In this document: piece by piece, positions 292-53,609 of the stretch
Layout of the letters: each line of letters begins with the position of its first letter
How positions within the stretch are numbered: the stretch's first letter is position 1
Origin: Minisyncoccota bacterium
GTDB lineage: Bacteria; Patescibacteriota; Minisyncoccia; Phycocordibacterales; UBA6065
NCBI GenBank assembly: GCA_035546035.1
Contig: DASZXC010000001.1
Span: 19,538-83,537, forward strand
Direction: 5' to 3'
Length of the DNA: 64,000 nucleotides
Program-made: the position numbers and the translations under genes
The notes under the pieces: model-generated
What the model was told of the DNA's origin: nothing
Database searches by the model: none
What the model saw: the letters and a program-made list of their open reading frames with translations, nothing else

Positions 292-735
292 ATGAAGATA
301 GTACTCACCAAAGACGTAAAGGGCGTAGGGAAGAAGCACGACGTGAAGACCGTCGCCGACGGCTTCGCGTTGAACAGCCTCATTCCGCAGGGCGTAGCAG
401 AAGTCGCGACTGCCGGCGTCATGAAGCGCGTCGAGCTCGTCAAAAAGCAGGAAGCAGCGGAGAAAAAGGTCAAGGAAGACCTTCTCGCCAAAAACCTCAA
501 GTCCATCCACGACCAGGTCGTCGAAGTCGCCCTCGAGGCGAACGACAAGGGCCATCTCTTCGCCGGCCTTCATGCCGCCGAGATCGCTCCTTTGGTCAAA
601 GAGAAGACCGGCGTAGATATCCTCCCTGAATTCATCGTCCTCGATAAGCCTATCAAGGCGGTAGGGGAGCACGCCGTAGACATCAAAGTGCAGGGCAAAT
701 CAGCGACGTTCACATTGAAGGTCAGCGCGAAATAG
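292..735 (+). CDS. rplI: 50S ribosomal protein L9
   Basis: MKIVLTKDVKGVGKKHDVKTVADGFALNSLIPQG is the canonical L9 N-terminal domain; 147 aa. Confidence 0.9.
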   Translation: MKIVLTKDVKGVGKKHDVKTVADGFALNSLIPQGVAEVATAGVMKRVELVKKQEAAEKKVKEDLLAKNLKSIHDQVVEVALEANDKGHLFAGLHAAEIAPLVKEKTGVDILPEFIVLDKPIKAVGEHAVDIKVQGKSATFTLKVSAK

Positions 736-736
736 G

Positions 737-798
737 CCCCCGCATACAAATAAAAACACCCCGCCAAGCCCTGGGGTGTTTTTATTTGTATGCGGGGG
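737..798. terminator. Bidirectional intrinsic terminator, a long hairpin between convergent rplI and rpmA
   Basis: Perfect inverted repeat cccccgcatacaaataaaaacacccc / ggggtgtttttatttgtatgcggggg around the loop gccaagccct. A-tract on one side and T-tract on the other. The 42-nt core is identical to the copy at 26642-26683. Confidence 0.7.
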
Positions 799-808
799 CC
801 TCTCCCGG

Positions 809-1081
809 CTACTGAACGTGAACGACGTTCTTAACCTTCGTCCTGCCGTTGAAGCCGAGCATGCGCTTCGTGGAGTTCTTGATCCTGCCTTCGGCGGTAG
901 CGTAGATAGTGTAGTCCTTGCCGAGGGCCGTATTCTTGCCCGGAAGGGTATTGAGGCCCTCCTGGCGGATGATGATAGAGCCTACTTTAGCGACTTCGCC
1001 CGCGTAGAGCTTCACGCCGAGGTAGCGCGGGTTTGAATCGCGCCCGTTTTTTGTCGTTCCGGCTGATTTCTTTGTTGCCAT
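809..1081 (-). CDS. rpmA: 50S ribosomal protein L27
   Basis: MATKKSAGTTKNGRDSNPRYLGVKLYAGE...GKDYTIYA matches the L27 signature; 90 aa. Confidence 0.9.
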   Translation of the reverse strand: MATKKSAGTTKNGRDSNPRYLGVKLYAGEVAKVGSIIIRQEGLNTLPGKNTALGKDYTIYATAEGRIKNSTKRMLGFNGRTKVKNVVHVQ

Positions 1082-2423: not shown

Positions 2424-2576
2424 AGGCAGAAGAGGTTGTGGGGAGCTTTGAGGTTTCTAGACAAACTCTACACGAAGCGTGCCTTTATACAAGGCAGGGG
2501 GAATCTATATAGCCATGTCGCACAATATATCTTTTCGGCAATATGTATACAAATAAAGGATTCTTCGAGAATCTCG

Positions 2577-3242
2577 CTATGAGAACTGAACGGGCCTCTT
2601 CCATGCCCTATAGAGTTCGTTTAGATAGCTAAAGTTGTCGCCCTGGTTTACAAAAGCAAAAAGAGCAAAAGCATTCTCCTCTATCGTCTCTACCATGAGG
2701 TTTTTAATCGACTCCATTGCGGCAATATCGCGAAGATTGTATGTGATGACGTTTATGGAGAATTCTTCTAATGCGTTAAGCAGCTCGAGCTGGTGCGAGG
2801 CAACCTCTCTGTATACGCTCCTTTCCTTTCTATAGTGCTCGTAAGCTGACATGAAAGCCGTGTCTGATCTCAAGGCGGCAAAACCCTCTACGCTAAAATC
2901 ATACGCCGTTTTGGGCGTTATGTTACAGATAAGCGTCCTGCCGCCGGTACGAAGGGCGACTTCGAGATCGTTTGAGGTCCCTATGACCACTTCTCGATAG
3001 AATCTGATTTGAGACATAGCCATCTCAATCGTCTCTCGCGCTTTCCTTTGGGCGATGTCTTTATGCGTCATGAATACCTGGCTGAGACCTATGACGGCGC
3101 TGATCGCGATGAACGCATGAGAAAGAGACGCTACGATTTCCCATTCGATGTGCGAGCTTATGGCCGCGCCAAGCAGGATACCCGCTATCAGGGTGCAAAA
3201 AAGTCCAATTATTGTCTGAATAGTCGGTTCGACGTTCTGCAT
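2577..3242 (-). CDS. Hypothetical protein with an N-terminal 2-TM segment and a helical cytoplasmic domain, in a low-GC islet
   Basis: Two hydrophobic helices (IIGLFCTLIAGILLGAAI and FIAISAVIGLSQVFM), then about 150 aa with no recognisable motif. Local GC is about 48%, versus about 60% in the flanks. Confidence 0.45.
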   Translation of the reverse strand: MQNVEPTIQTIIGLFCTLIAGILLGAAISSHIEWEIVASLSHAFIAISAVIGLSQVFMTHKDIAQRKARETIEMAMSQIRFYREVVIGTSNDLEVALRTGGRTLICNITPKTAYDFSVEGFAALRSDTAFMSAYEHYRKERSVYREVASHQLELLNALEEFSINVITYNLRDIAAMESIKNLMVETIEENAFALFAFVNQGDNFSYLNELYRAWKRPVQFS

Positions 3243-3253
3243 TTTTGTGAAAG

Positions 3254-3568
3254 TTACTGTCCCAACGGTTGATATCCCTGATCGCCTGCATTCATCAGAC
3301 GTTGTCCGGCGCTCTGCAATTCGGTCGGAGCGCCCGCGTCTATGCGGCCCAGGTTATGCAAAAAGGCCTGCCAGAGGATGCCGAGGAAGATGTTGTTATA
3401 AAGATACAGGAGCGGTCCCTTTATATAGTTCCAGACGGTCGTAATGCCGCCCCATGCGTAATGGAGGTTGTTCTGGGTCAGCGGAGCGTCGATGATAGCG
3501 CGCAGATCGTAGCCGAAAAAGCTCAAAACGATGATCACGATGAGCGCAAGGATGACGTACTTGATCAT
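3254..3568 (-). CDS. Hypothetical small membrane protein
   Basis: N-terminal TM helix (ILALIVIIVLSFFGY), 104 aa, co-directional with and adjacent to the 2-TM gene. Confidence 0.4.
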   Translation of the reverse strand: MIKYVILALIVIIVLSFFGYDLRAIIDAPLTQNNLHYAWGGITTVWNYIKGPLLYLYNNIFLGILWQAFLHNLGRIDAGAPTELQSAGQRLMNAGDQGYQPLGQ

Positions 3569-3594
3569 GGCTAAATTATATCACGCCCTGCGCC

Positions 3595-4905
3595 CTAGAG
3601 CTTCGGCAGATATGCCATCGGGTCCAGATATGCGTTCGTCGGCGCAGCGACGGTCTTTATGCCTGCGCAGGTCTTTGACCCGAGGGCCGACGAGTCCACG
3701 ACGCGGATGCCTTCGCTCGCGTATACGCCGAAATGTAGGTGCGGGCCGGTGGCATAGCCGGTGTCGCCGCTATACCCGATCACATCCCCTGTTATGACCG
3801 TATCCCCCGGCTTTACCGATACGACCGACAGGTGGCCGTATATGGTCGAAAGGCCGTTCGGATGCCTGATGAGCACATATTTGCCGTACTGACAGCCGCT
3901 CTTGTATTTCAGAGGCTCCGTATCGGCGACGGTGCCCGACAATGCGGCCTTTACCGGAGTTCCGATAGAGGCGGCTAGGTCTATGCCGCCATGGGTGCCG
4001 GACACGTAAAGGCGCTTGGCCGCGACGGTCTTGCCGAAGTACTGGGTGATGCGGATGCTGTCCAAAGGCCAGGTCAGGATGCCGGCCTTGGCGTCGGGAA
4101 CCGCATTCGGGTCGAGCGTCACCTTCAATTGCGACTCATAGCTGAAGAGCTCCTTTTCATACGTCTCGCGCTCGGCGATCTTGTCCGCCAGTATCTTCTT
4201 GTATTCCGCCTCTTTGCCCGCCGTCGCAGTCAAAAGCTTGGACTTCTCGTCCTTCGTCGCCAGCACCGTCTGCTGCTGGCCTGCCAGATCCTTCTGGTAT
4301 GACTTCAATTTCGACTGCTCGCCCAATGCTTCGTCCTGCTTGGCATTCAAGAGCTCGTTCAGGTCGCTCAAGTCGTCATAGCGGTCTTTGACCTTGGTCC
4401 GGAGGCTCTGGACGGCGTTCACGTAGTCCCAGGTCGCCGAGATGTTCTTGTTGTTGAGCAGGTTCTCGATCGGCGACTGCGATTCGGCGAACGCGGTGTC
4501 GCGGATGGATTCGGCGATGGCTTTCGATGTCGCGGCGATCTTGATCTCCGTGTCCTCGATATCGTCGTCGAGCTGCTTCAGGGTCAGGCTGGTCTTCGAT
4601 ATCTTCTGGCTCGTCAGGGCCAAGTTCGTCTCAAGCTTCTTCTGGGTCAATTCGAGCGTCTTAAGGGCGCTTGAGAGCGTCTGGGCTTCCTTGGATGTCG
4701 AATTGAGGAGCGTCGAGTACTGGTCTATCTGCTTCTGGAGGTCCTGGATCTTCTGATTGTTCTCGGTGATCTTCGCGCGTATGTCGTCGGCAGAATCGGC
4801 TGCGGACGCGGGCGAAGCCGTCTCTATGCATAAGAACAAAAACGCGGCGCAGAACGCCACGGCGATGCTCGCGGTTTTTATATTACGGAAGCTGTGTTTT
4901 GGCAT
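3595..4905 (-). CDS. M23 family peptidase (LytM domain) with N-terminal signal/TM and a long coiled-coil, EnvC-like
   Basis: C-terminal GTHGGIDLAASIGTPV...GYSGDTGYATGPHLHFGVY contains the M23 HxxxD and HLH motifs. The Q/K/L-rich middle looks coiled-coil. Start is ATG at 4905 or TTG at 4941; either overlaps the gltX stop by 22-58 nt. Confidence 0.8.
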   Translation of the reverse strand: MPKHSFRNIKTASIAVAFCAAFLFLCIETASPASAADSADDIRAKITENNQKIQDLQKQIDQYSTLLNSTSKEAQTLSSALKTLELTQKKLETNLALTSQKISKTSLTLKQLDDDIEDTEIKIAATSKAIAESIRDTAFAESQSPIENLLNNKNISATWDYVNAVQSLRTKVKDRYDDLSDLNELLNAKQDEALGEQSKLKSYQKDLAGQQQTVLATKDEKSKLLTATAGKEAEYKKILADKIAERETYEKELFSYESQLKVTLDPNAVPDAKAGILTWPLDSIRITQYFGKTVAAKRLYVSGTHGGIDLAASIGTPVKAALSGTVADTEPLKYKSGCQYGKYVLIRHPNGLSTIYGHLSVVSVKPGDTVITGDVIGYSGDTGYATGPHLHFGVYASEGIRVVDSSALGSKTCAGIKTVAAPTNAYLDPMAYLPKL

Positions 4906-6355
4906 CGGCGCTCTTGCGTATAAGCCCCAGCGCCTCTTCAATACGTTTGAGGACGGCTTGTTTGCCTAATATCGAAGCGAGGGTGAAGGGGTTGGGCGAT
5001 CGGTCTTTTCCGGAAAGGGCATAGCGGAAGGGCCAGAGGACATTGCCCCTGCCCTCTTTCTCCGCATACGGCCATATCGCGGCCTTGATCCCCTCCTCAT
5101 TCCATTTCTTGTCGGGCAGAGAGGTCAGGGCCGCTTTTATGTAGTCGAGGTGCCTTGTCGCCGGCGCCAGGTCGGCATCGTCTTTCCATTTCAGCGATAA
5201 TGCGTCATACGTCGGCTCGGCGAAATAGTAATCGAGGTCCTGCGCATTTATGGACGCGTCTATGTCGCTGAACGCGCTCGCGCGCTCCATGAGTACAGGC
5301 GCGATCTTCTCCGCCATGGACGCCGTGATGTTCCAATGCAGGTCTTTGGCCCGATCGGACGATTCGACGCGCCGCTTTATCTCCGCCGCGAAAGCCGCCG
5401 GCGCCATGCGCTTTATATGCTCTTTATTGACCCAGCGGAGCTTCTCTTCGTTGAAGATCGCGCCGCCTTTCTGGACTTTCGACAGATCGAATGCTTTGAC
5501 GAGGCCGGCGCGGTCGAATATCTCCTGCTCGGTGCCCGGATTCCAGCCGAGGAGCGCCATGTAATTGAGGAGCGCGTCCGGCAGGTATCCGAGGTCGCGG
5601 TAATAGGTGATCGGCTTCGCTCCGTGGCGCTTAGAAAGCTTCGATCGGTCGTGGGCGAGGACGAGCGGCAGGTGCGCATACGTCGGCACAGGCGCGCCGA
5701 GAGCTTCTATGAGCAAAATCTGCCGCGGCGTATTCGAAATGTGGTCCTCGCCGCGCACCACGTGCGTTATGCCCATCAGATAGTCGTCGAGTATGACCGC
5801 GAAATGAAAGATAGGCTCCGTGACGCTCTTGGCGATGACGAAATCGCCGAGGTCGGTCGTGTCGAATTCGATGTCGCCCCTGATCAGGTCGTGGAAGCGG
5901 ACTTTTTTGTTCGGGTTTTTGAAGCGGATCACTGCGTTGCGCGGGCCGGGATTCTCGCTCTTGGCGGCGCGGGCGGTTTCGTTCTCGGCGCTTGAAACAT
6001 ACGCCTTCCCCTCCGCGATCAGTTTCTCCAGGTATTCGCGGTACAGCTCTCCCCTCTCTGACTGGCGGTACGTCGCGTCGTATTCGAGGCCGAGCCATGC
6101 CAGGCTTTCGATGATATTGTCCTCGTATTGTTTTTTCGATCGGGCCGCGTCGGTATCTTCGATGCGGAGTATGAACTTGCCGCCGTTCTGGCGGGCATAG
6201 AGGTATGAAAAGACCGCCGTGCGATAGTTGCCTGCGTGGAGAAGCCCCGTCGGCGAAGGCGCGAAGCGAGTGACTATTTTGGAGCCGTTCTTTGACCCAA
6301 AGCCGCCCTTGCATCCGAAATTAGCTCTGAAAAAGGCTCTGATTCCTGAGATCAT
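4883..6355 (-). CDS. gltX: Glutamyl-tRNA synthetase
   Basis: RFAPSPTGLLHAGNYRTAVF is the HIGH region and KLSKRHG is the KMSKS motif of class I GluRS. The exact start is uncertain (ATG at 6355 or 6373). Confidence 0.9.
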   Translation of the reverse strand: MISGIRAFFRANFGCKGGFGSKNGSKIVTRFAPSPTGLLHAGNYRTAVFSYLYARQNGGKFILRIEDTDAARSKKQYEDNIIESLAWLGLEYDATYRQSERGELYREYLEKLIAEGKAYVSSAENETARAAKSENPGPRNAVIRFKNPNKKVRFHDLIRGDIEFDTTDLGDFVIAKSVTEPIFHFAVILDDYLMGITHVVRGEDHISNTPRQILLIEALGAPVPTYAHLPLVLAHDRSKLSKRHGAKPITYYRDLGYLPDALLNYMALLGWNPGTEQEIFDRAGLVKAFDLSKVQKGGAIFNEEKLRWVNKEHIKRMAPAAFAAEIKRRVESSDRAKDLHWNITASMAEKIAPVLMERASAFSDIDASINAQDLDYYFAEPTYDALSLKWKDDADLAPATRHLDYIKAALTSLPDKKWNEEGIKAAIWPYAEKEGRGNVLWPFRYALSGKDRSPNPFTLASILGKQAVLKRIEEALGLIRKSADAKTQLP

Positions 6356-6423
6356 AGGCACATTATAGCACACCGCGGTGTCCGATCTGAGCTATTTTGG
6401 ACTGCGAAAACCGCCTCGCGAAC

Positions 6424-7551
6424 TTATTTGGAGTGCGTCAAAGCGATATCTATGATCTCGCGGGCGATCTTATCGGCCGCGTCGCGATGGGCGAACGATT
6501 CGGCGCCGGCGCGCATGGCGTCAGCGACTTCGGGCTTGTCTATGATGCGCTCGATCTCTGCCGCCAATACGTGCGGCGTCAGGTTCACCTCTTCTATGAC
6601 CGAACATCCTCCCGCCGCAGCATAGGCGAACGCGTTCGACGTCTGGTCGTGGCTGATCTCTTCCGGGATCGGAATGATGATCGCCGGCGCTTTCCAAAGC
6701 GCGATCTCGAATATGGTCGAGCCTGCGCGCGAGATGATCAGCGACGAAGCGCCTGCGGCCATGCGCAGCGCCAGCGCGTTCAGGTACGCGAACGGCTTGT
6801 ATCGGTCGCGGTGGATGCTTTCGTTCAGAATGACGCGCGACGTGTTGGTCATCTCGTCTATGTTGTCTTTACCCGTCTGGTGGATGACGTAATATCTTTT
6901 GACCAGATCAGGGAGGATGCCGATGATGGCCTCGTTTATCCTCTGCGAGCCCTGCGAGCCGCCCAAGATCAAAATCGTCGGAATGGTATCCTCGAGCTTC
7001 AGATATTCGCGGGCGCCTTCGCGGATTGGCTCGGCGATCTCCTTTCGCACCGGATTCCCGGTGAAAGCGACCTTGTCCGCGGGAAAATATGCGGCGGCTT
7101 CCTTGTACGACAGGGCGATTCTTTTCGCGAACTTCCCTGCCCACAGATTCACGCGGCCGGGGTGCGAATCCGATTCATGGATGACGACGGGAATGCCCAA
7201 GACGCGCGCGGCGAAAAGCACCGGGAACGACACATAGCCGCCCTTGCCGAAGACAACGTCGGGATATATCTGCCAGACGCGGGCGACGGCTTTCATGACG
7301 CCGACGGCGGTCTTGAGCGCGTCGGTGATATTCCAGAGCGAGAAATAGCGGCGCACTTTGCCCGCATACGAGCGCTCGAATATGATGCCGTTCTCGAACA
7401 GGGCGCGCTCGTCGTACTGCGACGGCGCCATGTAATACAAAGAAGCGTCGATGAGCTTCTCCGTCTTCGCTATCGCCCTGATTGACTGCGCTATGGCGAT
7501 GATGGGATAGAAATGCCCTCCCGTGCCGCCTCCCGTAAGCAGGATTTTCAT
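6424..7551 (-). CDS. murG: UDP-GlcNAc:undecaprenyl-PP-MurNAc-pentapeptide GlcNAc transferase
   Basis: MKILLTGGGTGGHFYP is the MurG N-terminal G-loop signature; 375 aa. Confidence 0.9.
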   Translation of the reverse strand: MKILLTGGGTGGHFYPIIAIAQSIRAIAKTEKLIDASLYYMAPSQYDERALFENGIIFERSYAGKVRRYFSLWNITDALKTAVGVMKAVARVWQIYPDVVFGKGGYVSFPVLFAARVLGIPVVIHESDSHPGRVNLWAGKFAKRIALSYKEAAAYFPADKVAFTGNPVRKEIAEPIREGAREYLKLEDTIPTILILGGSQGSQRINEAIIGILPDLVKRYYVIHQTGKDNIDEMTNTSRVILNESIHRDRYKPFAYLNALALRMAAGASSLIISRAGSTIFEIALWKAPAIIIPIPEEISHDQTSNAFAYAAAGGCSVIEEVNLTPHVLAAEIERIIDKPEVADAMRAGAESFAHRDAADKIAREIIDIALTHSK

Positions 7552-7583
7552 GGTTTTAGAATTGCGGTTATTTTATCACAGCT

Positions 7584-8687
7584 TTAGCGCCTCAAACGTG
7601 CCGTTCTCGAAATATTCAAAAGAATGCCGGATTCCGCCAACACGAACAGCAATGCGGTACCGCCCTGCGATACGAACAGCAGCGGCACGCCGGAGAGCGG
7701 CAAGACGCCCGCCATCGCGCCTATGTTCGTGAACGACTGGACGATGATGAACGTCGCTATGCCGACCGCCAACAGCGTGCCGAACTGGTTCTCCGCGGTC
7801 AGGGCGACTTTCAGCGTGCGCAGCGCGAAGAACACATAGAGGCCGAGCAATACCAGCCCGCCAATCAGGCCGAATTCTTCCGCCGCCACGGCGAATATCG
7901 AATCCCCCACCGGTTCAGGAAGATAGTTGAATTTCTGGATGCTCTGGCCGAAGCCGCGGCCGGCGATGCCCCCCGATCCTATGGCGATGAGCGACTGGTT
8001 GATCTGATATCCCGCCGCCTGGGTCGCGCCGCTCGGATCGAAGAACGTCTGTATGCGCGCCATGACGTACGGCCGCGAGAACGCCAGCAATGTCAGACCG
8101 ATCGCTCCCGCGGCGCCGAGAGACGCGATGTGCCGCCACTTGCCCCCTGCGGCGATGAACATGGCGACCAATGCCGAAGCGATGATCAGATACGTGTCGG
8201 TATCGGGCTGGAGGAGGCACAGGACCCCCGTCACGAAGAGCATGAAGCAGAGCGGAATGAATCCTTTTTTAAAATCGGACGCCTTGTCTTTGACGAAGGA
8301 AAGCCATGCGGCGAAATACATGACGGCTGCGATCTTCAGGACCTCTGATACCTGGAGCGAAAACGGGCCGATGATAAGCCATCGGACCGCGCCGCCGTGC
8401 CTTAATCCCAGGCCCGGTATGAAGATGGCGACGTTAAGGACGATGGCGAACAGGAAGAGCCAGAACGAGACTTTCCTCCAATGCATATGGTCTATGCGCG
8501 AAAACGCATAGAGGGCAAGGAGGCCCGGCACGAGTCCGAAAAATATTTGTTTAAAAGCGATCGAACCAAAATGGGCCGAGTCGCGCGCGAGGAGCCCGAG
8601 CGAGGCCGATAAGAATATAAGAAACCCGGCGACGATGAGGAGCCCGATCGCTACGAGGAGCCGCGTATCCATCCGATTCTTGCGCAT
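7584..8687 (-). CDS. ftsW: SEDS-family peptidoglycan glycosyltransferase FtsW/RodA
   Basis: 367-aa polytopic membrane protein with FtsW/RodA-like conserved blocks. Adjacent to murG, as in dcw clusters. Confidence 0.85.
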   Translation of the reverse strand: MRKNRMDTRLLVAIGLLIVAGFLIFLSASLGLLARDSAHFGSIAFKQIFFGLVPGLLALYAFSRIDHMHWRKVSFWLFLFAIVLNVAIFIPGLGLRHGGAVRWLIIGPFSLQVSEVLKIAAVMYFAAWLSFVKDKASDFKKGFIPLCFMLFVTGVLCLLQPDTDTYLIIASALVAMFIAAGGKWRHIASLGAAGAIGLTLLAFSRPYVMARIQTFFDPSGATQAAGYQINQSLIAIGSGGIAGRGFGQSIQKFNYLPEPVGDSIFAVAAEEFGLIGGLVLLGLYVFFALRTLKVALTAENQFGTLLAVGIATFIIVQSFTNIGAMAGVLPLSGVPLLFVSQGGTALLFVLAESGILLNISRTARLRR

Positions 8688-8699
8688 CTGCTCATGATA

Positions 8700-8996
8700 T
8701 CACGCGTCTGTGCGCGGCCGGTCGCGCATGTGTGCAAAAAGAAAGCCTCCGGGATTAAGATCCAGGAGGCATAGTCTAGAAGGTTTGGCCGAGAAGGATA
8801 ACTCGGTTACTCGCTTCGGGCGCAGATTGGAGAGCGCGCGGCGGATGCCGGGAGCTCGATCGATCGGCGGGGCGTGTGACGCACCGGACTCTGGAGGCTT
8901 CGCGCTTGGCGCGGTCGCTACCACAGTAACCCGACTCGCTTATTGGGAGGGACGGCTCGGAATACGGAACGAAGACATGTCTCTGTCTCTTTTTGG
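8700..8996 (+). ncRNA. rnpB: Candidate RNase P RNA (bacterial type A-like, reduced)
   Basis: The 370-bp gap between two minus-strand genes has no credible ORF. The plus strand contains GAAAGCCUCCGGG (compare GGAAAGUCCGGG, P4 5' strand), GGAGGCAUAG (compare CUCCAUAGGGCA), a GCGUGUGACGCACC hairpin (compare GCGGUAAGAGCGCACC) and ACAGUAACCCGACUCGCUUAU (compare ACAGAACCCGGCUUAU, P4 3' strand). It ends with a hairpin (agaca-ugucuc-ugucu) plus a U-tract at 8974-8996. The 5' end is not defined. Confidence 0.45.
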
Positions 8997-9055
8997 CGTT
9001 CCGCGAGCGGCGTCTTCAAATAGCTTAGTCTGGTATAAGTATAGCACCCCCTGTT

Positions 9056-9997
9056 CTATTTGTCAAGCACTTTCGCGTTAAGATAAGAAATCGTTGATTT
9101 TACGAGGTTTTCCAGGTCTTTGAACCTGCCGTCATATGAGGATCCGAGAACCGATATAATGATCGGATGGTTCAGGCCCGCATTGAATGCCACGACCACG
9201 TTCCCGCCTGACAGATCGGTATAGCCGGTCTTCGATCCGATGAGATTCGGCACATTCGGTATAGCCAGGTCGGTGTTCACTGCGGCGTGAGGATAGTTCT
9301 CCGAGGATATCATCGTCTTTTGGAGCGCGGTCGCTTCGATCAGGTGCCGGTCCGTTTTCATGATGTGATCCACCAGGAGCGCGACGTCGCGGGCCGATCC
9401 GTATGCGCCCGACGTCGTCTTGTCTATGTCGAGGCCGGACTGATTAGAGAATCGCATGTCGGCGAGGCCGATCGATCGCGCGTTGGCATTCATCTGCGCT
9501 ACGAAAAGACCTATGGGGTCGGTGGCCGTGGCGGAAATCTGGGTTCCGGCCGTTCGTGCCACCGCCCGGATGCCGTCATTTGACGACGTGACGAGGCTGA
9601 AGTCCACGATGTCGCGGATATGCCATTCTTCGCCGACATAGAGGCCGCTGTCGCCCTCTTCCCTGATATCATCAGGCGTTATGCGCACCGAAACCGATTC
9701 AGGGACGATATTCGAAGCCGTCAGAGCCGACATCAGTTTCGTCAGTGATGCGAGGGGCCGCTCTCCGTCAGGGTCTTTGGCATAGAGAGCCTTGTCGTCG
9801 CGGGCGTCATAGACGAATGCCGAGGCCGCCTCGACCGGCGTATACGGGAACAAGAGCTCCTGGACCGTCGTCGTGGACGTGGCAATCAAGGGCTCTTTCG
9901 GGATCGGCAAGGGCGCCGGGTATATCCACCACAAAAACAGCGCCGCGACGAGCGCCAAAAGGCAGAGTTCGGATACGGCGGCGCGTTTAGGATTCAT
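9056..9997 (-). CDS. D-alanyl-D-alanine carboxypeptidase (S11, PBP5-like)
   Basis: All three serine-PBP motifs are present: SLTK (SxxK), SSN (SxN) and KTGYT (KTG). N-terminal TM/signal segment. Confidence 0.8.
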   Translation of the reverse strand: MNPKRAAVSELCLLALVAALFLWWIYPAPLPIPKEPLIATSTTTVQELLFPYTPVEAASAFVYDARDDKALYAKDPDGERPLASLTKLMSALTASNIVPESVSVRITPDDIREEGDSGLYVGEEWHIRDIVDFSLVTSSNDGIRAVARTAGTQISATATDPIGLFVAQMNANARSIGLADMRFSNQSGLDIDKTTSGAYGSARDVALLVDHIMKTDRHLIEATALQKTMISSENYPHAAVNTDLAIPNVPNLIGSKTGYTDLSGGNVVVAFNAGLNHPIIISVLGSSYDGRFKDLENLVKSTISYLNAKVLDK

Positions 9998-10604
9998 GCG
10001 ATGGGGCGGATTCGGCCGACGCTTTGTCAGCAGCAGCCTCTTCGTCGGCGAAAGCCTGGAGCTCGGCTTTTACTTTTGCGAAATCCGGGAGGTCTTCGAT
10101 TTTGGCGACGCCGAGGTGCGCGAGCAGGTCTATGGACGGCTTGTATGAATAGCCCCTGCCCTGGCCTGGTTGCCCGTTCCTGCCGCTGGTCTCGGCGATG
10201 CGCTCGATAAGGCCGCGGATGAGCAGGTTACGCAAGATGAACGAAGAGTTCACGCCGCGGATGTAATCGATCTCTGATCGCTTGACCGGGCCTTTGTACA
10301 GAATGATTGACAGCGTCTCGAGTCCGGCTTTGCCCAGGTCGCGCATGAGCTCGTCTTTGGTCAGCTTTTCGATGATCGTGCCGACTTCCGGAGCCGTGCG
10401 CATCTCTATTTCGTCGCCATTGCGGATGACTCGAAGTCCTCGCCCCGCGAGGCCGGTTTCCAAGGCCGTCAAAGCAGTTTCGAGCTCCTCAGGCGCGCAA
10501 TCGAGCATGGCCGCGGCCTTTTTTAGGATTATCGGCTCGCCTTTCCAGAAGAGCAGGGCTTCGAGCTTGGTCTCAAGTGTGAGCGGTGCGGGAGCGGATT
10601 CCAT
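9987..10604 (-). CDS. scpB: Segregation and condensation protein B
   Basis: LEALLFWKGEPI...GLRVIRNGDEIEMRT is the typical ScpB winged-helix N-terminus. Follows scpA directly. Confidence 0.85.
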   Translation of the reverse strand: MESAPAPLTLETKLEALLFWKGEPIILKKAAAMLDCAPEELETALTALETGLAGRGLRVIRNGDEIEMRTAPEVGTIIEKLTKDELMRDLGKAGLETLSIILYKGPVKRSEIDYIRGVNSSFILRNLLIRGLIERIAETSGRNGQPGQGRGYSYKPSIDLLAHLGVAKIEDLPDFAKVKAELQAFADEEAAADKASAESAPSHES

Positions 10605-10619
10605 AGGTAGAGTATATCG

Positions 10620-11360
10620 CTAGTATTTCGGCACGCCAACGCTCTGGCCGGTTTCCATCTGTATGTCGTCGAAATGGCGCTCCTGGGTGACGTTTATGAT
10701 GCCTTGCTTGACCAATTCGAGCATGGCGAGGAACGATACGATGACGTCGACTTTTTTGGCCTGATTCTCTGCGGTTTTGCCCGCATGCCCGCTGAATTCG
10801 CGGAAGCTCATGCGTAGGCTCTCGACCACGCGCTTGGTCAGGTTGCCGATCATCTCTTCGAGGCTGATGACCTTGTCCACGACGACTTTCGGCAGAAATT
10901 CGCGTTTCGGCAGGTTGGCGAGCACGCGACCGGCGGCGGCGAACAGGTTCGCGATAGTCATATCGGCGTCGGGCGAAAAAACAGCGTCTAACTTTCGTTC
11001 GCCTCGGGCAAAGAGCACGTTTTTGCCGAATATCGGCCGTAATTTGCCCGACACTTCGCGCATGCGCTCGTATATCTTCAGACGGCGGTTCAGGTCGTCT
11101 ATCGACGCCTGCTCCTCGGTCGTTAATGTCAGCTGCGGCAGGAGCGATTTCGATTTGATGAGCAGCAGTGTAGAAGCGACAAGGACAAATTGCGCGCCCT
11201 CGGCGACCGGGAATTCGCCCAGATCGTGCACGTATGCGATATAGTCGTCGGCGACTTTCGCGAGCGATACGTCGTTCACGAATAATTTGCGCTTCTCTAT
11301 CAGATCGAGGAGAAGCTCGAGCGGGCCTTCGAAATGCTGCTGTTTGACGGTGAAGGACAT
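10620..11360 (-). CDS. scpA: Segregation and condensation protein A
   Basis: FEGPLELLLDLIEKRKL is the ScpA signature; 246 aa. Confidence 0.85.
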   Translation of the reverse strand: MSFTVKQQHFEGPLELLLDLIEKRKLFVNDVSLAKVADDYIAYVHDLGEFPVAEGAQFVLVASTLLLIKSKSLLPQLTLTTEEQASIDDLNRRLKIYERMREVSGKLRPIFGKNVLFARGERKLDAVFSPDADMTIANLFAAAGRVLANLPKREFLPKVVVDKVISLEEMIGNLTKRVVESLRMSFREFSGHAGKTAENQAKKVDVIVSFLAMLELVKQGIINVTQERHFDDIQMETGQSVGVPKY

Positions 11361-11374
11361 ACGTCTCGGCGCGA

Positions 11375-12682
11375 TTATGGATTCAAGCGCTTCACGTCGC
11401 GCGGCAAATAGGTCGCTTCGCGAACGTTCGGAAGGTCGAGCATCTTCATGATGAGGCGCGCCGGGCCGATGCCTGCTCCGCCGTGCGGAGGACAGCCATA
11501 GCGGAAGAAATTGATGTAGTCTTTGAGCGCTTCGAGGCTCATGCCTTTGTCCAAAGCCTGCTTTTCGAGGATGTCTACGCGATGCTCGCGCTGGGCCAAT
11601 GTCGTTACCTCGATGCCGCGATACAAAAGATCCGCGCGCTTCGATCGGTCAGGGCCATGCTCGCTGCCCTCTTCGTGGCGCATGTGATAGAAGGCGCTCT
11701 TGGATTTGTGGTAGTCGGTGATGAATACGAAATCGTGGCCGTGCTTTTCCTTTACATAGTCGCAGATCGCGCGCTCTTCCTCCGGCGAAAGGTCATGCTC
11801 TTCGCCCGATTCGACGCCGCGCTCTTTGAGGATCTTTTTCGCCTCGACCATAGGAATGCGCGGGAATGGCGTGGTCGGGATTTCTATGGCCAGATTCGGG
11901 AATGCCTTTTTCACTGCCGTAAAGCCCGAAACGAGCATTTTTTCCTCCGTATCCATGAGGTCGTGATGCGACTCGATATATGCCATTTCAAAGTCCCAGC
12001 CGGTGAATTCGGTCAAGTGGCGCGTGGTGAACGATTCTTCGGCGCGGAATACCGGAGCGACCATGAAGACGCGCTCGAAACCGGATGCGATACCCATTTG
12101 CTTGTAGAACTGGGGCGACTGGGCGAGGTATGCCTTGCCCTTGAAGTACTTTACTTCGAAGACCTGCGCGCCTGTTTCCGACGGCGTGTTCATGAATGAC
12201 GGCGGATATATCTGGAGGAAATCGTTGTCGAGCCAATACTGCCTGAAGCCGCGCTCGAGCTCGGTCCAGACTTTGAATATCTGGGCCTTTTCCGGCTTGC
12301 GAAGATCGATCCAGCGATAGTCGAAGCGGATCGGCGCCTCGGTCTCTTCCCCGCCCTTTTTAGTGACGACAGGGATCGGCAGTTCGGGAGCGGCGGCTGA
12401 AAGGACGACGATATCTTTGACCTCGATCTCGACGCCGCCCGGAGCCTGGTCGGCTTTTTTGGCCAAGCCATGTATCTCGACGACCGATTCGACATTCAGA
12501 GATTTCGCCGTATCGAATGCAGGCGACTCTTTGCCTACGACGCCCTGGATGGTGCCGTTGATGTCGCGGATGACGATGAATGCGATCTTGGACTGCGCGC
12601 GGAGAGCGTGCACGAAGCCGCGGACCATGACGTCTTGGCCTGCATGCTCGATGACTTTGTTGGTTGGGATTGAGATTTTCAT
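11375..12682 (-). CDS. aspS: Aspartyl-tRNA synthetase (archaeal/eukaryotic-type class IIb, possibly non-discriminating)
   Basis: FRAEESFTTRHLTEFTGWDFEMAY is motif 2 and GGAGIGPARLIMKMLDLPNVREA is motif 3. A 435-aa length is typical of archaeal-type AspRS. Confidence 0.8.
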   Translation of the reverse strand: MKISIPTNKVIEHAGQDVMVRGFVHALRAQSKIAFIVIRDINGTIQGVVGKESPAFDTAKSLNVESVVEIHGLAKKADQAPGGVEIEVKDIVVLSAAAPELPIPVVTKKGGEETEAPIRFDYRWIDLRKPEKAQIFKVWTELERGFRQYWLDNDFLQIYPPSFMNTPSETGAQVFEVKYFKGKAYLAQSPQFYKQMGIASGFERVFMVAPVFRAEESFTTRHLTEFTGWDFEMAYIESHHDLMDTEEKMLVSGFTAVKKAFPNLAIEIPTTPFPRIPMVEAKKILKERGVESGEEHDLSPEEERAICDYVKEKHGHDFVFITDYHKSKSAFYHMRHEEGSEHGPDRSKRADLLYRGIEVTTLAQREHRVDILEKQALDKGMSLEALKDYINFFRYGCPPHGGAGIGPARLIMKMLDLPNVREATYLPRDVKRLNP

Positions 12683-12851
12683 ATAAAAATAAAAGACCCC
12701 TTCACGAATCTGATATCAGACTCGCAGGGGCGATTTCATGCCGTTTGGCGCGAATCTCGCGGTGCCACCCTGGTTTATAACTCTTCTCTTCTACCGCCTA
12801 TTCCTCGCCGGGTGTCAGCCGGGTCGTTGGTTAATTAGATAATATCTCTAA

Positions 12852-12872
12852 AATTATTGCAGGGCAATAATT
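12852..12872 (+). promoter_or_regulatory. Perfect palindrome (candidate operator) overlapping a TTGACT -35-like hexamer upstream of the 12918 ORF
   Basis: aattattgc-agg-gcaataatt has 9-bp arms and a 3-nt spacer, immediately followed by ttgact. It sits in a low-GC intergenic region. Confidence 0.3.
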
Positions 12873-12917
12873 GACTTTTCATCATAAATATGATAGAAGA
12901 AGCACAGAATTTGAACC

Positions 12918-13706
12918 ATGAAAAAACTACCTTCGATCGAAAGACTTGTTGTTGAAGAACCTAAAAAACCTTCTCTTGCCGGTCTATTTGCTCTTACGGG
13001 CGATCTATATGCGGCCGCAAAAATGGCAACTAAAGAAAAAGAACCCCTGTATTGTTGTCAGGTGCAGCTCTGCTTCCAAAGGCACTCTGATCTGGAGCGG
13101 ACCAGTCATGAAATCAAGAAGACCCTCTCCGATTCCGAGATCGACCCTCTTTGGAAAGCCGTATGCTGCATCGGCGCCAGCCAATGGGGAATTCTCGACG
13201 AGCTCATTGAGTACTCTAAAGACAAGCCGGATATTCTACGTTATCTCTGTGAAGATTTCGGCGGCAAGGAAGATCGGCATGTCTTTTCCCTAGGCATCGC
13301 TGCAGAGAATGAACAAATCGCTCAAACCGTCCTCGACCATCTTGTAGGGACCGGACACAGCTTTTTATCCCCCGAATTCATCGAGGCGATATTGAACAAG
13401 TATCCAACTCTGACACTCACAAAGCGTCAGAAAGATACTCTTATTCGCGAGGCGATCTCAGGCAGTCTATCGACCGAAGAAGTTGCCTTGTGTGAGAAAA
13501 TGGCAGGACGTAGCCTGACAAAAAGTCAACGGAAACGTTATGGTCAGAATCGTTTCCGGGATTTGGTCGATTGCGATGACGCTGTCGCGCCTGAATTCGT
13601 GTGGAACGAGCTCAAACGATCTCTTTCCCATCGCGAAAAGGGGCTGCTTCAAGTGGAACTCCAGAGAATGCTTGCGATCCTCGAGAGGAATCAGCCGCGA
13701 GTCTAG
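12918..13706 (+). CDS. Hypothetical helical protein in a low-GC plus-strand islet
   Basis: 262-aa ORF with its own terminator. AT-rich relative to its neighbours and on the opposite strand to every flanking gene. No recognisable motif. Confidence 0.5.
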   Translation: MKKLPSIERLVVEEPKKPSLAGLFALTGDLYAAAKMATKEKEPLYCCQVQLCFQRHSDLERTSHEIKKTLSDSEIDPLWKAVCCIGASQWGILDELIEYSKDKPDILRYLCEDFGGKEDRHVFSLGIAAENEQIAQTVLDHLVGTGHSFLSPEFIEAILNKYPTLTLTKRQKDTLIREAISGSLSTEEVALCEKMAGRSLTKSQRKRYGQNRFRDLVDCDDAVAPEFVWNELKRSLSHREKGLLQVELQRMLAILERNQPRV

Positions 13707-26026: not shown

Positions 26027-26509
26027 CTATTTCGCTTTTGGTTCAGCGACGACGACTTTCGCCGGGCGGATGAGCTTGGCGCCGAGCTTATAGCCCTTTT
26101 CGATGACAGAAATGATCGTATTGTCTTTTGCCGTATCATCGGTCGGCTCATATTTGACCGCTTCATGGAGATTCGGATCGAATGTCTCCCCTGCTGCGCC
26201 GACTTCTTTGAGACCGTTCTGATCGAGTACGCCTTTGAGCTGGCCATATATGTATTCGACGCCCGAACGCCAGTTCCTGTCGGCCTTTTCCCAGGCAGCC
26301 TTGTTCGCGAATGCCATTTCGAATGAAGAAAGCACGGGCAAAAGCTCCTCGACGAGGCCTTCGTTCGCCATCGTCCTGAATTCCTTCATCATGGCTTCGG
26401 TCTGCTTCTTGTGATTGGCGAAATCAGCCTTGGCGCGCTGCCAGCCCGCGAGATATTCGTCGCGTTCGGCCTTTATCTTGTCTATTTCAGTCTGCTCCAT
26501 TACGGACAT
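26027..26509 (-). CDS. grpE: Nucleotide exchange factor GrpE
   Basis: GrpE C-terminal block LEELLPVLSSFEMA...GVEYIYGQL. The ORF-track start at 26536 is a TTG. The first ATG is at 26509 and a second at 26500; a putative promoter overlaps both (see findings). Confidence 0.8.
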   Translation of the reverse strand: MSVMEQTEIDKIKAERDEYLAGWQRAKADFANHKKQTEAMMKEFRTMANEGLVEELLPVLSSFEMAFANKAAWEKADRNWRSGVEYIYGQLKGVLDQNGLKEVGAAGETFDPNLHEAVKYEPTDDTAKDNTIISVIEKGYKLGAKLIRPAKVVVAEPKAK

Positions 26510-26552
26510 ACTAATGAAATCAGCGCGCCCAGTCAATAAATTTGCAACAAAA

Positions 26553-26582
26553 AGCCGCCCGTGTTACGGGGCAGGCGTACCT
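26553..26582 (-). terminator. Second weaker hairpin with U-tract upstream of grpE
   Basis: Minus strand reads ccccgu-aac-acggg followed by cggcttttt. Confidence 0.3.
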
Positions 26583-26636
26583 GAAATCCTTTCTTGTTTA
26601 TTGTTGATGAACCGAGCGCAAGGCGTACCTTAACCT

Positions 26637-26688
26637 CCAAAGCAAATAAAAACACCCCGCCAAGCCCTGGGGTGTTTTTATTTGCTTT
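26637..26688. terminator. Bidirectional intrinsic terminator after rpsI, second copy of the 42-nt hairpin module
   Basis: gcaaataaaaacacccc-gccaagccct-ggggtgtttttatttgc abuts the rpsI stop codon. The core is identical to 747-788. Confidence 0.7.
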
Positions 26689-26689
26689 G

Positions 26690-27115
26690 CTAGCGCTTGC
26701 TCCACTGAGGAGACTTGCGGGCCTTCTTGAGACCGAACTTCCTGCGCTCCTTTGCGCGGGGGTCTCGCTTGAGGAAGCCGAGCTTCTTGAGCTTCTTGCG
26801 GAGCTCGAGGTCGTAATCGAGGAGGGCACGGGAGATCGCGTGGCGGAGAGCCTCTGCCTGCGAGTGGATGCCGCCGCCCGAAAGGATAGCGGTGACCTTG
26901 AACTTCTGGGCGATCTTCGATTCTACGAAAGCAGCCTCGCCGATAGCCTGCATCTCGGCCGTGGCAAAATAGCCGGCGAGATCTTTCGTGACGCCATCAG
27001 AATTGGTGAGCTCGAACGACTGCTTTGCGGCAGGCGTGATGCGGGCGCGGGCGACTGCCGTCTTGCGTCGGCCGACCGCTTCGAAATATTTGGTTTTAGT
27101 CTCGGTTGCGTTCAT
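26690..27115 (-). CDS. rpsI: 30S ribosomal protein S9
   Basis: YFEAVGRRKTAVARA...GGGIHSQAEALRHAISRAL and a C-terminal KR-rich tail; 141 aa. Confidence 0.9.
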   Translation of the reverse strand: MNATETKTKYFEAVGRRKTAVARARITPAAKQSFELTNSDGVTKDLAGYFATAEMQAIGEAAFVESKIAQKFKVTAILSGGGIHSQAEALRHAISRALLDYDLELRKKLKKLGFLKRDPRAKERRKFGLKKARKSPQWSKR

Positions 27116-27122
27116 AAAAGGT

Positions 27123-27473
27123 TTATTCGGTGATCGTGAGGTTCTTCATGATCCTCGGGGTGAGCTTGTTCTTCGGGAGCATGCCCTTGATCGCGATGCG
27201 GAAAACTTCGCTCGTACCCTTCTTTTCGATCATGCGCTTCATCGTAGTGTCTATGAGGCCGCCCGGATAGCCGGTATAGCGGCGGTAGACCTTCTCCTCC
27301 TTCTTCTTGGTCGAGATGTCGGCTTTCGAAGCGTTAACGATGCGGACTTCGACGTCGGCGATGACGTTCGGAGCGTACGCGGTCGTGTTCTTGCCCATGA
27401 GGATCTTGGCGGCTTCGGTGGCCACTCGTCCGATCTTCTTCGCCTGTGCGTCTATAGTGTGGGTAGTTCGCAT
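27123..27473 (-). CDS. rplM: 50S ribosomal protein L13
   Basis: L13-like sequence and the conserved rplM-rpsI operon order. Confidence 0.85.
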   Translation of the reverse strand: MRTTHTIDAQAKKIGRVATEAAKILMGKNTTAYAPNVIADVEVRIVNASKADISTKKKEEKVYRRYTGYPGGLIDTTMKRMIEKKGTSEVFRIAIKGMLPKNKLTPRIMKNLTITE

Positions 27474-27484
27474 GGGAGTAATGA

Positions 27485-27838
27485 TTATTTTACGAACTGG
27501 ATATGGGCCATCTTCGCGCCGTCAGACTTGCGGAGCGGGAGCTTGATGACGCGGGTATAGCCGCCCGTGCGCGCCTTGTGAGCAGGGGCGATAACTTCGA
27601 CGAGCTTCTTCGCAGCCTTTGCGTCGCCGATCCTCGAAACGAGGAGGCGGCGGCTGGCGAGGGTGCCGTTCTTGGCTTTGGTTACCATAGGCTCGATGAA
27701 CTTGCGGAGTTCTTTCGCCTTGGCCTCGGTCGTAGTGATGCCTTCGTGGATAATGAGCGAACGCACCAAAGAGCGGACGAGCGCGGCGCGCTGTCCTTTT
27801 TCCCTGCCCAGTATTCGAAATTTCTCGTGGTGTCGCAT
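27485..27838 (-). CDS. rplQ: 50S ribosomal protein L17
   Basis: MRHHEKFRILGREKGQRAALVRSLVRSLIIHEGITTT is the L17 signature. It follows rpoA as expected. Confidence 0.9.
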   Translation of the reverse strand: MRHHEKFRILGREKGQRAALVRSLVRSLIIHEGITTTEAKAKELRKFIEPMVTKAKNGTLASRRLLVSRIGDAKAAKKLVEVIAPAHKARTGGYTRVIKLPLRKSDGAKMAHIQFVK

Positions 27839-27881
27839 GGCGTGTTTAGAGGCTCAAGTTTACAGATTTTCTATGATTTGT

Positions 27882-28844
27882 CTACTTAAGGGTGATGCCG
27901 TACTCCGAAAGAGCCTTGCGGATCTCCTGGATGCCCTTCGGGCCGAGGCCTTCGATGTTCTCGATGTCCGCCTCTTTCTTGCGCGCGAGGCCTCCGACGG
28001 TGCGGATATTCGCATTCGCGAGAGCGTTGGTCGTCCTCTGCGAGAGGCCGAGGGTCTCGATCCTAGTCTTGAGGAATTCGGTGTCGAGCTCCCTCTTCGC
28101 GCCGCCAGCAGCTTCAGACTTCTCTTCCGATGCAGGGGCGACAGGCTCTTCCTCCTTGAAGCCGACGATGGCCTTGAGCTGGGTGATCATGATGCTGATC
28201 GACTTCTCGAGAGCCTCGTGAGGCGTGATGGTGCCGTCGGTCTCGACAGTGATCTTGAGGCGGTTGAAATCGGTTCGGTCTCCGACGCGCATGTTCTCTA
28301 CTTCGTAGTTGACGCGCTTGATCGGAGCGAAGGTCGCGTCGAGAGCGATGGTGCCGATATCTACGCGCTCCTTCTGGAGAACGTCCTTCGATACGTAGCC
28401 GAGGCCGTGGGCGACGGTGATCTCGATATCGAGCTCCGCGCTCTTATCAGTTACGGAGGCGATATGGAGCTCCGGATTGAGGATCTCTACCTGGCCGGGG
28501 ACCTTGATGTCGGCCGCGGCGACGTCCTTGACGCCCTTGACCTTGAGCGAAAGCGTCTGGGTCTCGGTCGTAGCGACCTTGATGCGGAGCTTCTTGAGGT
28601 TGAGGAGAAGGGTGATGACGTCTTCCTTCACGCCGTTGATAGTCGAGAATTCATGCGATACGCCCGCGATCTTCACATGAGTGACGGCCGTGCCCGGGAG
28701 AGACGAAAGGATGATGCGGCGGAGCGAGTTGCCGAGGGTATGGCCGTAGCCGGGATAGAGGCCGTCTATCTCGTACACGCCGAGATTGTCCTTTTCGAGG
28801 ACGATCTTTGGCTTCGAAGGGAGCACGATGTTGGTTTCGTTCAT
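27882..28844 (-). CDS. rpoA: DNA-directed RNA polymerase alpha subunit
   Basis: GYGHTLGNSLRRILLSS-type N-terminal domain and a C-terminal helix-hairpin-helix region; 320 aa. Confidence 0.9.
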   Translation of the reverse strand: MNETNIVLPSKPKIVLEKDNLGVYEIDGLYPGYGHTLGNSLRRIILSSLPGTAVTHVKIAGVSHEFSTINGVKEDVITLLLNLKKLRIKVATTETQTLSLKVKGVKDVAAADIKVPGQVEILNPELHIASVTDKSAELDIEITVAHGLGYVSKDVLQKERVDIGTIALDATFAPIKRVNYEVENMRVGDRTDFNRLKITVETDGTITPHEALEKSISIMITQLKAIVGFKEEEPVAPASEEKSEAAGGAKRELDTEFLKTRIETLGLSQRTTNALANANIRTVGGLARKKEADIENIEGLGPKGIQEIRKALSEYGITLK

Positions 28845-28866
28845 ACGTTTGTTATTACGAAATTGA

Positions 28867-29481
28867 TTAACGGCTATAGAACTCGATCACTTGCCCCAGA
28901 TTGAAGAGGACTTCCGTCTGGTTGAACTTCGGCGCGGCGGTCATCTCGGCCTCTTTCTTGTCGTTGTTATATGAAAGCCATGTCGGGGTCGCGACCTTCT
29001 TCATCTTCTCGTCGAGGTCCTTGAAGAGAGGCTTTTTGAGGCTCGCAGGTCGAATAGCGATCTTGTCGCCTACCTTGATGGCGTACGAAGGGCTGAAGGT
29101 GCGGGCACCGTTGACCATGATCTGGCCGTGGGCAACCATCTGGCGAGCGGCGAGGCGCGTAGGAGCGATGCCGAGGCGGTATATGACGTTGTCGCAGCGG
29201 GTCTCGAGGCGCTCGTAAAGGGCCTGGACGGTGTTGACGCCCTTCTTGGCGACCGACTCCTTGACGTATTTCTTGAACTGGCGCTCCATGACGCCGTAGG
29301 TATAGCGAACCTTCTGCTTCTCGAGCATCGCGGTCGCGAATTCGCCTTTAGGGCGATATCCACCCTTGCCTCCCTGTCCCCCTTTGCGCTCGGCGCGGAG
29401 GGCGAACTTGGCGGTCTGCGTCTTCTCGAAGATATTTGCTCCGAGGCGGCGCGCGATCTTATATTTTGGTCCGTTTATCAT
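28867..29481 (-). CDS. rpsD: 30S ribosomal protein S4
   Basis: KYKIARRLG...LETRLDNVIYRLG-type S4 domain; 204 aa. Confidence 0.9.
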   Translation of the reverse strand: MINGPKYKIARRLGANIFEKTQTAKFALRAERKGGQGGKGGYRPKGEFATAMLEKQKVRYTYGVMERQFKKYVKESVAKKGVNTVQALYERLETRCDNVIYRLGIAPTRLAARQMVAHGQIMVNGARTFSPSYAIKVGDKIAIRPASLKKPLFKDLDEKMKKVATPTWLSYNNDKKEAEMTAAPKFNQTEVLFNLGQVIEFYSR

Positions 29482-53095: not shown

Positions 53096-53128
53096 AAAAA
53101 GCCCCGCGCACGTATGTGCGCGGGGCTT
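53096..53128 (-). terminator. Intrinsic terminator (12-bp GC-rich stem) upstream of zwf
   Basis: agccccgcgcac-gtat-gtgcgcggggct, followed on the minus strand by tttttcc. Confidence 0.65.
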
Positions 53129-53139
53129 TGAGACAACCG

Positions 53140-53569: not shown

Positions 53570-53604
53570 AAATAAAGGCCCGGCGCACGCGCGTGCGCCG
53601 GGCC
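53570..53604 (-). terminator. Perfect palindromic hairpin terminator after tRNA-Ala(GGC)
   Basis: ggcccggcgcacgcgcgtgcgccgggcc is a 28-nt perfect palindrome, with tttattt downstream on the minus strand. Confidence 0.6.
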
Positions 53605-53609
53605 TTCTG

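Follow-up and report, generated by a model that had tools for sequence, protein, structure and literature searches.

An identical hairpin of two-way terminator type at two ribosomal-protein gene ends in a Paceibacterota genome

An exact 42-nt hairpin sequence, CAAATAAAAACACCCCGCCAAGCCCTGGGGTGTTTTTATTTG (the module), was found twice in the 64-kb stretch of DNA analysed here (the window), at 747-788 (locus 1) and at 26643-26684 (locus 2), both on the + strand. The two copies are probably two-way intrinsic terminators that owe their identity to a recent short-patch copy within the genome, and that belong to no dispersed family; termination, the direction of copying and the copying mechanism are all points that we infer from the sequence. 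The host is an uncultured soil bacterium of the Candidatus Paceibacterota (CPR), known as a metagenome-assembled genome (MAG), and the source contig, of 97,320 bp, carries the proteins HVU06183.1 and HVU06210.1. A previous sequence-only reading of this DNA had located the first copy correctly and the second 1 nt off, at 26642-26683, and the rplI, rpmA and rpsI context that it gave was confirmed by Pfam. The features considered are as follows.

292..735, + strand: rplI (ribosomal protein L9; Pfam PF01281, PF03948), entering locus 1 from the left
734..801: full perfect palindrome of locus 1, arms 734-762 and 773-801, 29 bp, 10-nt loop
747..788, + strand: module copy 1, with a 16-nt arm CAAATAAAAACACCCC, a 10-nt loop GCCAAGCCCT and a 16-nt arm GGGGTGTTTTTATTTG
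809..1081, - strand: rpmA (ribosomal protein L27; Pfam PF01016), entering locus 1 from the right
26027..26500, - strand: grpE (Pfam PF01025), the next gene downstream of locus 2
26554..26576, - strand: second hairpin, of canonical terminator form, about 60 nt beyond the module and followed by TTTTTG (discriminant d = 7.5)
26572..26631, - strand: leader remnant, flanked by the module and the second terminator
26638..26689: full perfect palindrome of locus 2, arms 26638-26658 and 26669-26689, 21 bp
26643..26684, + strand: module copy 2, in the same orientation as copy 1; identical sequence in a second assembly (L001)
26690..27115, - strand: rpsI (ribosomal protein S9; Pfam PF00380), reading into locus 2

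The core stem of the module comprises 16 Watson-Crick pairs around a 10-nt loop, and a 17th pair, G-U, can form in the + strand RNA only; the stem had been counted as 17 bp before. Folded alone, the module yielded a single hairpin on either strand (-22.4 and -21.3 kcal/mol). It was noted that pairing continues into the flanks further than the sequence-only reading had claimed, by 13 bp at locus 1 (AGGCCCCCGCATA/TATGCGGGGGCCT) and by 5 bp at locus 2 (CAAAG/CTTTG), where a single g/c pair had been described. The locus 1 palindrome starts inside the rplI stop codon, ends 7 nt short of the rpmA stop and nearly fills the 73-nt intergenic region, with whole-structure energies of -60.4 and -62.7 kcal/mol (z about -9 to -10). 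The locus 2 palindrome directly adjoins the rpsI stop codon (26690-26692), and its whole-structure energies are -32.5 and -35.7 kcal/mol. In a census of perfect stems of at least 10 bp across 742 kb of Paceibacterota DNA (n = 98), the two module hairpins were the longest, at 29 and 21 bp, and most of the others measured 10-14 bp.

Recurrence of the 42-mer, with 3 mismatches allowed, was seen in 0 of 100 dinucleotide-preserving shuffles. Because both palindromes are perfect, identity between the copies must stop at mirror-image positions of the two arms, and the independent information that they share is therefore about 26 nt, or one arm plus the loop. This is still far beyond chance, and the earlier view that the identity is not chance convergence stands for the arm and loop together; convergence is accepted for the arm alone. 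A shared arm and a shared 10-nt loop in one genome point to a recent copy event.

The arm design itself was encountered widely. The pattern ATAAAAACACCCC-N6-14-GGGGTGTTTTTAT was present in at least 120 JGI metagenome contigs of 24-63% G+C, and a shorter version was present in 84 viral contigs. Among the matches listed, the loops were unrelated to that of the module, the closest 10-nt loop differing at 5 of 10 positions. This recurrence of the 13-bp arm with unrelated loops indicates that the arm design arises convergently. The flanks behave in the same manner: among the 110 distinct metagenome matches listed, pairing extended beyond the 13-bp arm by at least 3 bp in 39 (1.7 expected at random) and by at least 5 bp in 16 (0.1 expected at random). 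Site-specific stem extension is thus generic for terminators with an A-tract and a U-tract and carries no information on mobility, and the co-varying flanks that had been taken as a sign of propagation lose that meaning, with the same extension in 16 of 110 unrelated hairpins listed. Terminators in hundreds of unrelated genomes have converged on identical arms and on flanks of the "compensatory" kind, and homology or mobility should not be argued from either feature by itself.

We assessed the module for the anatomy of an intrinsic terminator. An A-tract, AAATAAAAA, precedes the stem CACCCC/GGGGTG, which is followed directly by TTTTTATTT. The A-tract AAAUAAAAA mirrors the U-tract UUUUUAUUU, so that the opposite strand reads as the same terminator and either strand scores as one; on both strands of both loci, UUUUUAUUU lies directly 3' of GGGGUG. 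The upper stem, CACCCC(G)/(U)GGGGUG, is rather weak, with a predicted energy of -10.3 kcal/mol on the + strand and -9.2 kcal/mol on the - strand, and the U-tail score (T = 4.76-4.78) is the highest among the terminators of the window. The d'Aubenton-Carafa discriminant, computed on the upper hairpin only and not on the full stem, exceeded zero for each strand of each locus (d = 10-15). This lies within the range of seven other terminator scores in the window (d = 7.5-47), and canonical terminators are clearly in use elsewhere in the genome. An automated terminator scan of the window listed neither module site; we suspect that its rule wants a T-run after the full stem, whereas the T-run of the module falls inside the stem. 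A search of the whole window against Rfam 15 returned two tRNAs only, with no family at either module site.

The position of the module relative to the genes was also in keeping with termination. The G+C stem begins 15-28 nt past the three stop codons. A terminator only a few base pairs after a gene can be blocked by the terminating ribosome, as PMC4824070 indicates; with the spacing seen here, the terminating ribosome should not block the G+C stem. By every sequence-level criterion examined, the module reads as an intrinsic terminator, and the full anatomy with passing scores on both strands agrees with the two-way terminator proposed earlier. With a loop of 8-10 nt and a G+C stem of 6-7 bp, the hairpin is nevertheless weaker than typical; terminators have on average 7-9 bp in the stem and 3-5 nt in the loop (PMC10325885). 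The module would be redundant at locus 2, given the canonical terminator 60 nt downstream, and termination does not account for the outer 13 bp at locus 1, since the 3' outer arm lies beyond the end of any transcript that stops in the U-tract.

At locus 1 the flanking genes rplI (+) and rpmA (-) are convergent, and rpmA has its own promoter-like site at 1142-1114. At locus 2 the flanking genes rpsI and grpE are co-oriented, not convergent; rpsI is the last gene of an rpoA-rplQ-rplM-rpsI run (gene table of L001, with rplM identified by Pfam), and a promoter-like TTGACT-17-TAGTAT lies ahead of grpE-dnaK at 26536-26508. The locus 1 module would accordingly be expected to stop both convergent transcripts, and the locus 2 module would stop the rpoA-rplQ-rplM-rpsI transcript ahead of grpE.

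We then compared the same two sites among related Paceibacterota loci. Downstream of rpsI, almost every relative possessed its own hairpin with an A-tract, a GC stem and a T-tract (for instance GAAGCCCCGGAAGGGGGTTTTTG in L002, GAAAACACCCGATGCGATCGGGTGTTTTTC in L005 and GACAAAAAAACAACCACCCCGAAGGTGGTTGTTTTTTTGTC in L011), and hairpins of different sequence were likewise found at the rplI-rpmA site in L083, L085, L086, L291, L292 and L294. The closest relative, one MAG that contributes both L002 and L083, shares 78-84% nucleotide identity with the window over syntenic blocks and has the module at neither site. The sequence-only reading had proposed this comparison of intergenic sites; relatives have a terminator-type hairpin at the same two positions, but with other sequences.

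The relatives also show what locus 2 may have looked like. In L002, rpsI is followed by a terminator, a promoter (TTGACA-17-TAGTCT) and a leader; next come a gene of 198 aa, a second terminator and grpE. In the window the 198-aa gene has been deleted (no tblastn match) and the leader is fused to the terminator of that gene. The leader and the right arm of this terminator survive, and the module stands in place of about 95 nt that hold the first terminator and the promoter in L002. The terminator at 26554-26576 is orthologous to that of the L002 198-aa gene, with GGGCGGCTTTTTGTTG of L002 conserved. It was noted that CTTTGG beside the module is common to L004 and looks ancestral, and that CAAAG beside the stop codon is new; a simple copy leaves this 5-bp CAAAG/CTTTG flank pairing unexplained. 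The 198-aa gene of L002 and L004 had no Pfam match.

Within the leader remnant, two UNCG-tetraloop hairpins, AAGG-UACG-CCUU and CAGG-UACG-CCUG, flank a Shine-Dalgarno-like AAAGGA, and no Rfam match was obtained for the motif at 26572-26631. The same leader motif was observed upstream of the 198-aa gene in L002 (about 4528-4598) and in L004 (about 3850-3940), where the hairpins are kept with different stems and CUCG loops.

Locus 1 without the 42-mer reads GGCCCCCGCATATATGCGGGGGCC, a G+C-rich hairpin with an AT loop and without good U-tracts. It resembles the rpmA-side terminators of L085 (CCCCGC-TAAAT-GCGGGG) and L292 (CCCCCGG-TAAA-CCGGGGG), and the outer part of the palindrome, GGCCCCCGC...GCGGGGGCC, may represent a hairpin that predates the module and took it up at its apex. 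Several other observations were made around the rplI-rpmA site and its tail. At 8265-8300 of L083, and also in L082 and L084, the left arm of the rplI-rpmA terminator is tandemly duplicated (AAAAAACCGCCCTT AAAAACCGCCCTT GAGGCGGTTTTTTT), a further sign of slippage or template switching at terminator hairpins. Downstream of rpmA in L086, genes for DNA methylases and for a terminase-like GpA_ATPase lie within positions 5700-13300; this region beside the conserved rplI-rpmA site is probably a mobile island, for example a prophage. In the window itself, a terminator-like tail, TTTATTTGTATAC, at 2545-2557 (- strand, past the stop of ORF 2577-3242) matches the locus 1 tail TTTATTTGTATGC at 12 of 13 positions, with an 11-nt exact match at 2547-2557; it is preceded by a weak AT-rich hairpin, GATTCT-CGA-AGAATC, and is probably a convergent U-tract.

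We sought similar hairpin pairs elsewhere in the clade by comparing hairpins with arms of at least 12 nt across the 742 kb of Paceibacterota loci and the window. Arm identity of at least 85% was found in 4 of 31 same-source pairs and in 1 of 1097 different-source pairs (Fisher's exact test; p = 2e-6, or 7e-5 without the focal pair), and the sole different-source pair, from L011 and L014, is orthologous. One of the same-source pairs lies in the window on the - strand, where AAGGCCCGGCGCACGCGCGTGCGCCGGGCCTT at 53575-53606 and AAAGCCCCGCGCACATACGTGCGCGGGGCTTT at 53098-53129 are identical at 25 of 32 positions with two compensated pairs. These hairpins bracket a 132-aa ORF (53140-53538; no Pfam match) between tRNA-Ala(GGC) and a zwf-like gene, and the pair looks like an older hairpin duplication tied to a small gene insertion. 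In L014 (Taylorbacteria), the hairpins at 4442-4469 and 4867-4894, CCATATCTCAGC-TATA-GCTGAGATATGG and CCACATCTCAGC-CATA-GCTGAGATGTGG, agree at 25 of 28 positions, and one of their base pairs is compensated; between them, shortly after rpsI, lies a stand-alone Cas2-like gene (PF20803, PF09827). In L020, a 45-nt direct repeat at 3432-3476 and 3568-3612, consisting of the whole rpsI terminator plus 13 nt (AAAAAGCCCCCGTTTGGGGGCTTTTTTATACGCGGAGACG), brackets about 91 nt of non-coding DNA and may have arisen by local duplication or by insertion at a terminator.

These three pairs are local and bracket inserts, whereas the members of the focal pair are 25.9 kb apart; with this distance and ancestral junctions on both sides, the focal pair is not an insertion boundary. 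The comparison hints that hairpin copying within one genome is recurrent in Paceibacterota, often beside newly inserted small genes. A bolder version, in which a process in this phylum copies ready-made terminator hairpins to new sites, including the inside of existing hairpins, and leaves pairs that bracket inserts, is in our judgement quite unlikely. If such copying does recur, it would bear on how streamlined genomes obtain regulatory punctuation for new genes.

An alternative to the preferred reading is that the 42-mer is a miniature palindromic mobile element of a REP-, MITE- or PATE-like kind that targets hairpin apexes and acts as a terminator only incidentally. The flanks form an inverted repeat centred exactly on each copy (13 bp at locus 1, 5 bp at locus 2), locus 1 without the module is a plausible older hairpin, and the enrichment of similar within-genome hairpins in the clade would also be expected from such an element. 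Locus 2 without the module, however, leaves only CAAAGCTTTG, which is not a hairpin, and the pairing of the flanks is generic for terminators of this type. At locus 1 the core has a TA dinucleotide on either side, which could recall a target-site duplication, but the signal is ambiguous because TA is its own complement; at locus 2 the flanks are G and C with no direct repeat, and no target motif is common to the two sites. Together with the replacement, rather than clean insertion, of the 95 nt at locus 2, this argues against classical transposition. The arms are inverted repeats trivially, which is all that the module offers of a MITE terminal inverted repeat, and the head motif of REP/BIME elements was not seen, the palindrome being perfect, its flanks differing (CGCATA and CCAAAG) and GTAG being absent. 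No transposase or RAYT was detected by Pfam among nine ORFs near the two loci or in ORF 53140-53538. No third copy or near-copy was found by blastn-short in the window or in the 742 kb of related loci, the 32-mer was absent from 185,579 GTDB species representatives, a 22-mer (loop plus upper stem) was absent from JGI metagenomes and IMG/VR, and a 68-mer had no blastn match among plasmids and phages; the count of two is a lower bound, from about 64 kb of the source genome. The lack of further copies and of a target-site duplication at locus 2, and the presence of other hairpins in relatives, leave a REP- or MITE-like family unsupported, and we consider a mobile element unlikely. Of the earlier proposals, the small mobile or REP-like element is therefore not upheld, and the propagated cassette survives as one copy event but not as a dispersed family, there being no copies in the relatives or collections scanned. 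Also rejected were attL/attR sites or an insertion of the intervening 25.9 kb (rplI|rpmA and rpsI|grpE are ancestral adjacencies and the interior consists of syntenic core genes) and an integron attC site (by eye, no R''/R' core sites, no extrahelical bases and perfect pairing).

Selection could instead have kept the hairpin as a sequence-specific 3'-UTR element of ribosomal-protein transcripts, a site for a protein or a double-strand RNase. It is consistent with this that rpmA and rpsI both lie on the - strand, so that their mRNAs would end in an identical hairpin with the loop AGGGCUUGGC, that the stems, at 21-29 bp, have the length that a double-strand-specific RNase needs, and that a similar proposal was made for the sequence-conserved mycobacterial TRIT terminators (PMC3152330). 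The shared orientation nevertheless has a prior of 50%, no Rfam family covers either site, and the unrelated hairpins and loops at both sites in relatives of 80-84% nucleotide identity mean that no sequence is conserved. Nor was the loop enriched as a pairing partner elsewhere in the window, with 7 matches at up to 1 mismatch against 3.4 expected (5 of 100 shuffles reached 7), and we give this explanation a very low probability. That one copy was created by the assembly is extremely improbable, even though the source is a short-read MAG and the locus 1 sequence is present in the window, and so in this contig, only. Locus 2 recurs without a single difference in a second assembly, on the 2.9-kb contig L001 of another bin (100% over 2896 bp), and a 42-bp repeat is far below the final assembly k-mer that the contig names of sister MAGs (k141) imply. 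Each copy also runs on into its own perfect palindrome. These unique flanks, the gene order on both sides of both loci, which is as in relatives, and the second assembly of locus 2 speak against an artefact and answer the concern, raised in the sequence-only reading, that the motif might be a collapsed repeat. It was noted that L001 (GCA_035548285.1, DASZTH010000377.1), which matches window positions 26191-29086, comes from a bin in which the S9 protein bears the label Thermodesulfobacteriota; the contig probably belongs to Paceibacterota and was mis-binned.

For the preferred reading, a two-way terminator copied once within the genome, the following history appears the most parsimonious. The locus 2 hairpin would be the native terminator, since beyond CACCCC/GGGGTG its arms consist only of 15 nt rich in A on one side and in T on the other. 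From locus 2, 42 nt would then have been copied into the apex of the older G+C-rich hairpin at locus 1, which would have had no good U-tract, and the copy would have supplied strong U-tracts in both directions. The plain A/T tracts of the locus 2 arms and the plausible hairpin that remains at locus 1 favour this direction of copying, from locus 2 to locus 1. As to mechanism, our guess is that replication or repair switched template from one hairpin-forming site to another, after which the palindrome may have been corrected to perfection; a tiny element that targets hairpin apexes would be the alternative. If the main reading is true, it has little importance alone, the exact repeat marking one recent copy event, but it suggests that a genome may acquire a terminator as a copy of one that it already has, instead of evolving it in place.

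Among known systems, the module resembles intrinsic and two-way terminators in its G+C hairpin, direct U-tract and mirror A-tract just past stop codons. The likeness to two-way terminators between convergent genes holds at locus 1, where one hairpin would serve both genes, and two-way terminators are under a stronger constraint that favours stems of Watson-Crick pairs only (PMC5381666). It differs from typical terminators in its perfect 21- and 29-bp stems, its 8-10 nt loop and the occurrence of the exact sequence at two sites of this genome. For reuse of a terminator at the sequence level within a genome, the closest precedent is TRIT of Mycobacterium, which is palindromic, mostly two-way, recurrent as a sequence and located at or over stop codons (PMC3152330). 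TRIT comprises 147 copies conserved across Mycobacterium species (RNIE paper, PMC3152330), whereas the module, which is unrelated in sequence, was found in two copies here and in no relative and has a canonical U-tract.

The REP/BIME and other stem-loop families share with the module the form of short extragenic palindromes at gene ends, and they can affect termination or mRNA stability (PMC2267715, PMC12306157). REP/BIME elements are, however, imperfect palindromes in tens to hundreds of copies, often with a head motif and a RAYT transposase (PMC2267715, PMC12306157), and none of these features was seen in the 64 kb of this genome or, for the transposase, in the ORFs screened. TerR of plasmid pLS20 is similar in its long stem with a G+C-rich top and an A/U-rich lower part, and in its A-tract and U-tract. 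Its 15-bp stem resists processive antitermination, as shown experimentally in a conjugation operon (PMC10325885). The stems at the two module loci, at 21-29 bp, are longer than the 15 bp of TerR; by analogy, resistance to antitermination is a possible benefit of such long stems. Quasi-palindrome correction by template switching (the Ripley model) is a mutational mechanism and not an element family. It would account for the perfection of both palindromes over 21-29 bp, without a G-T pair, and for a flank (CAAAG) that has become the complement of the ancestral CTTTG.
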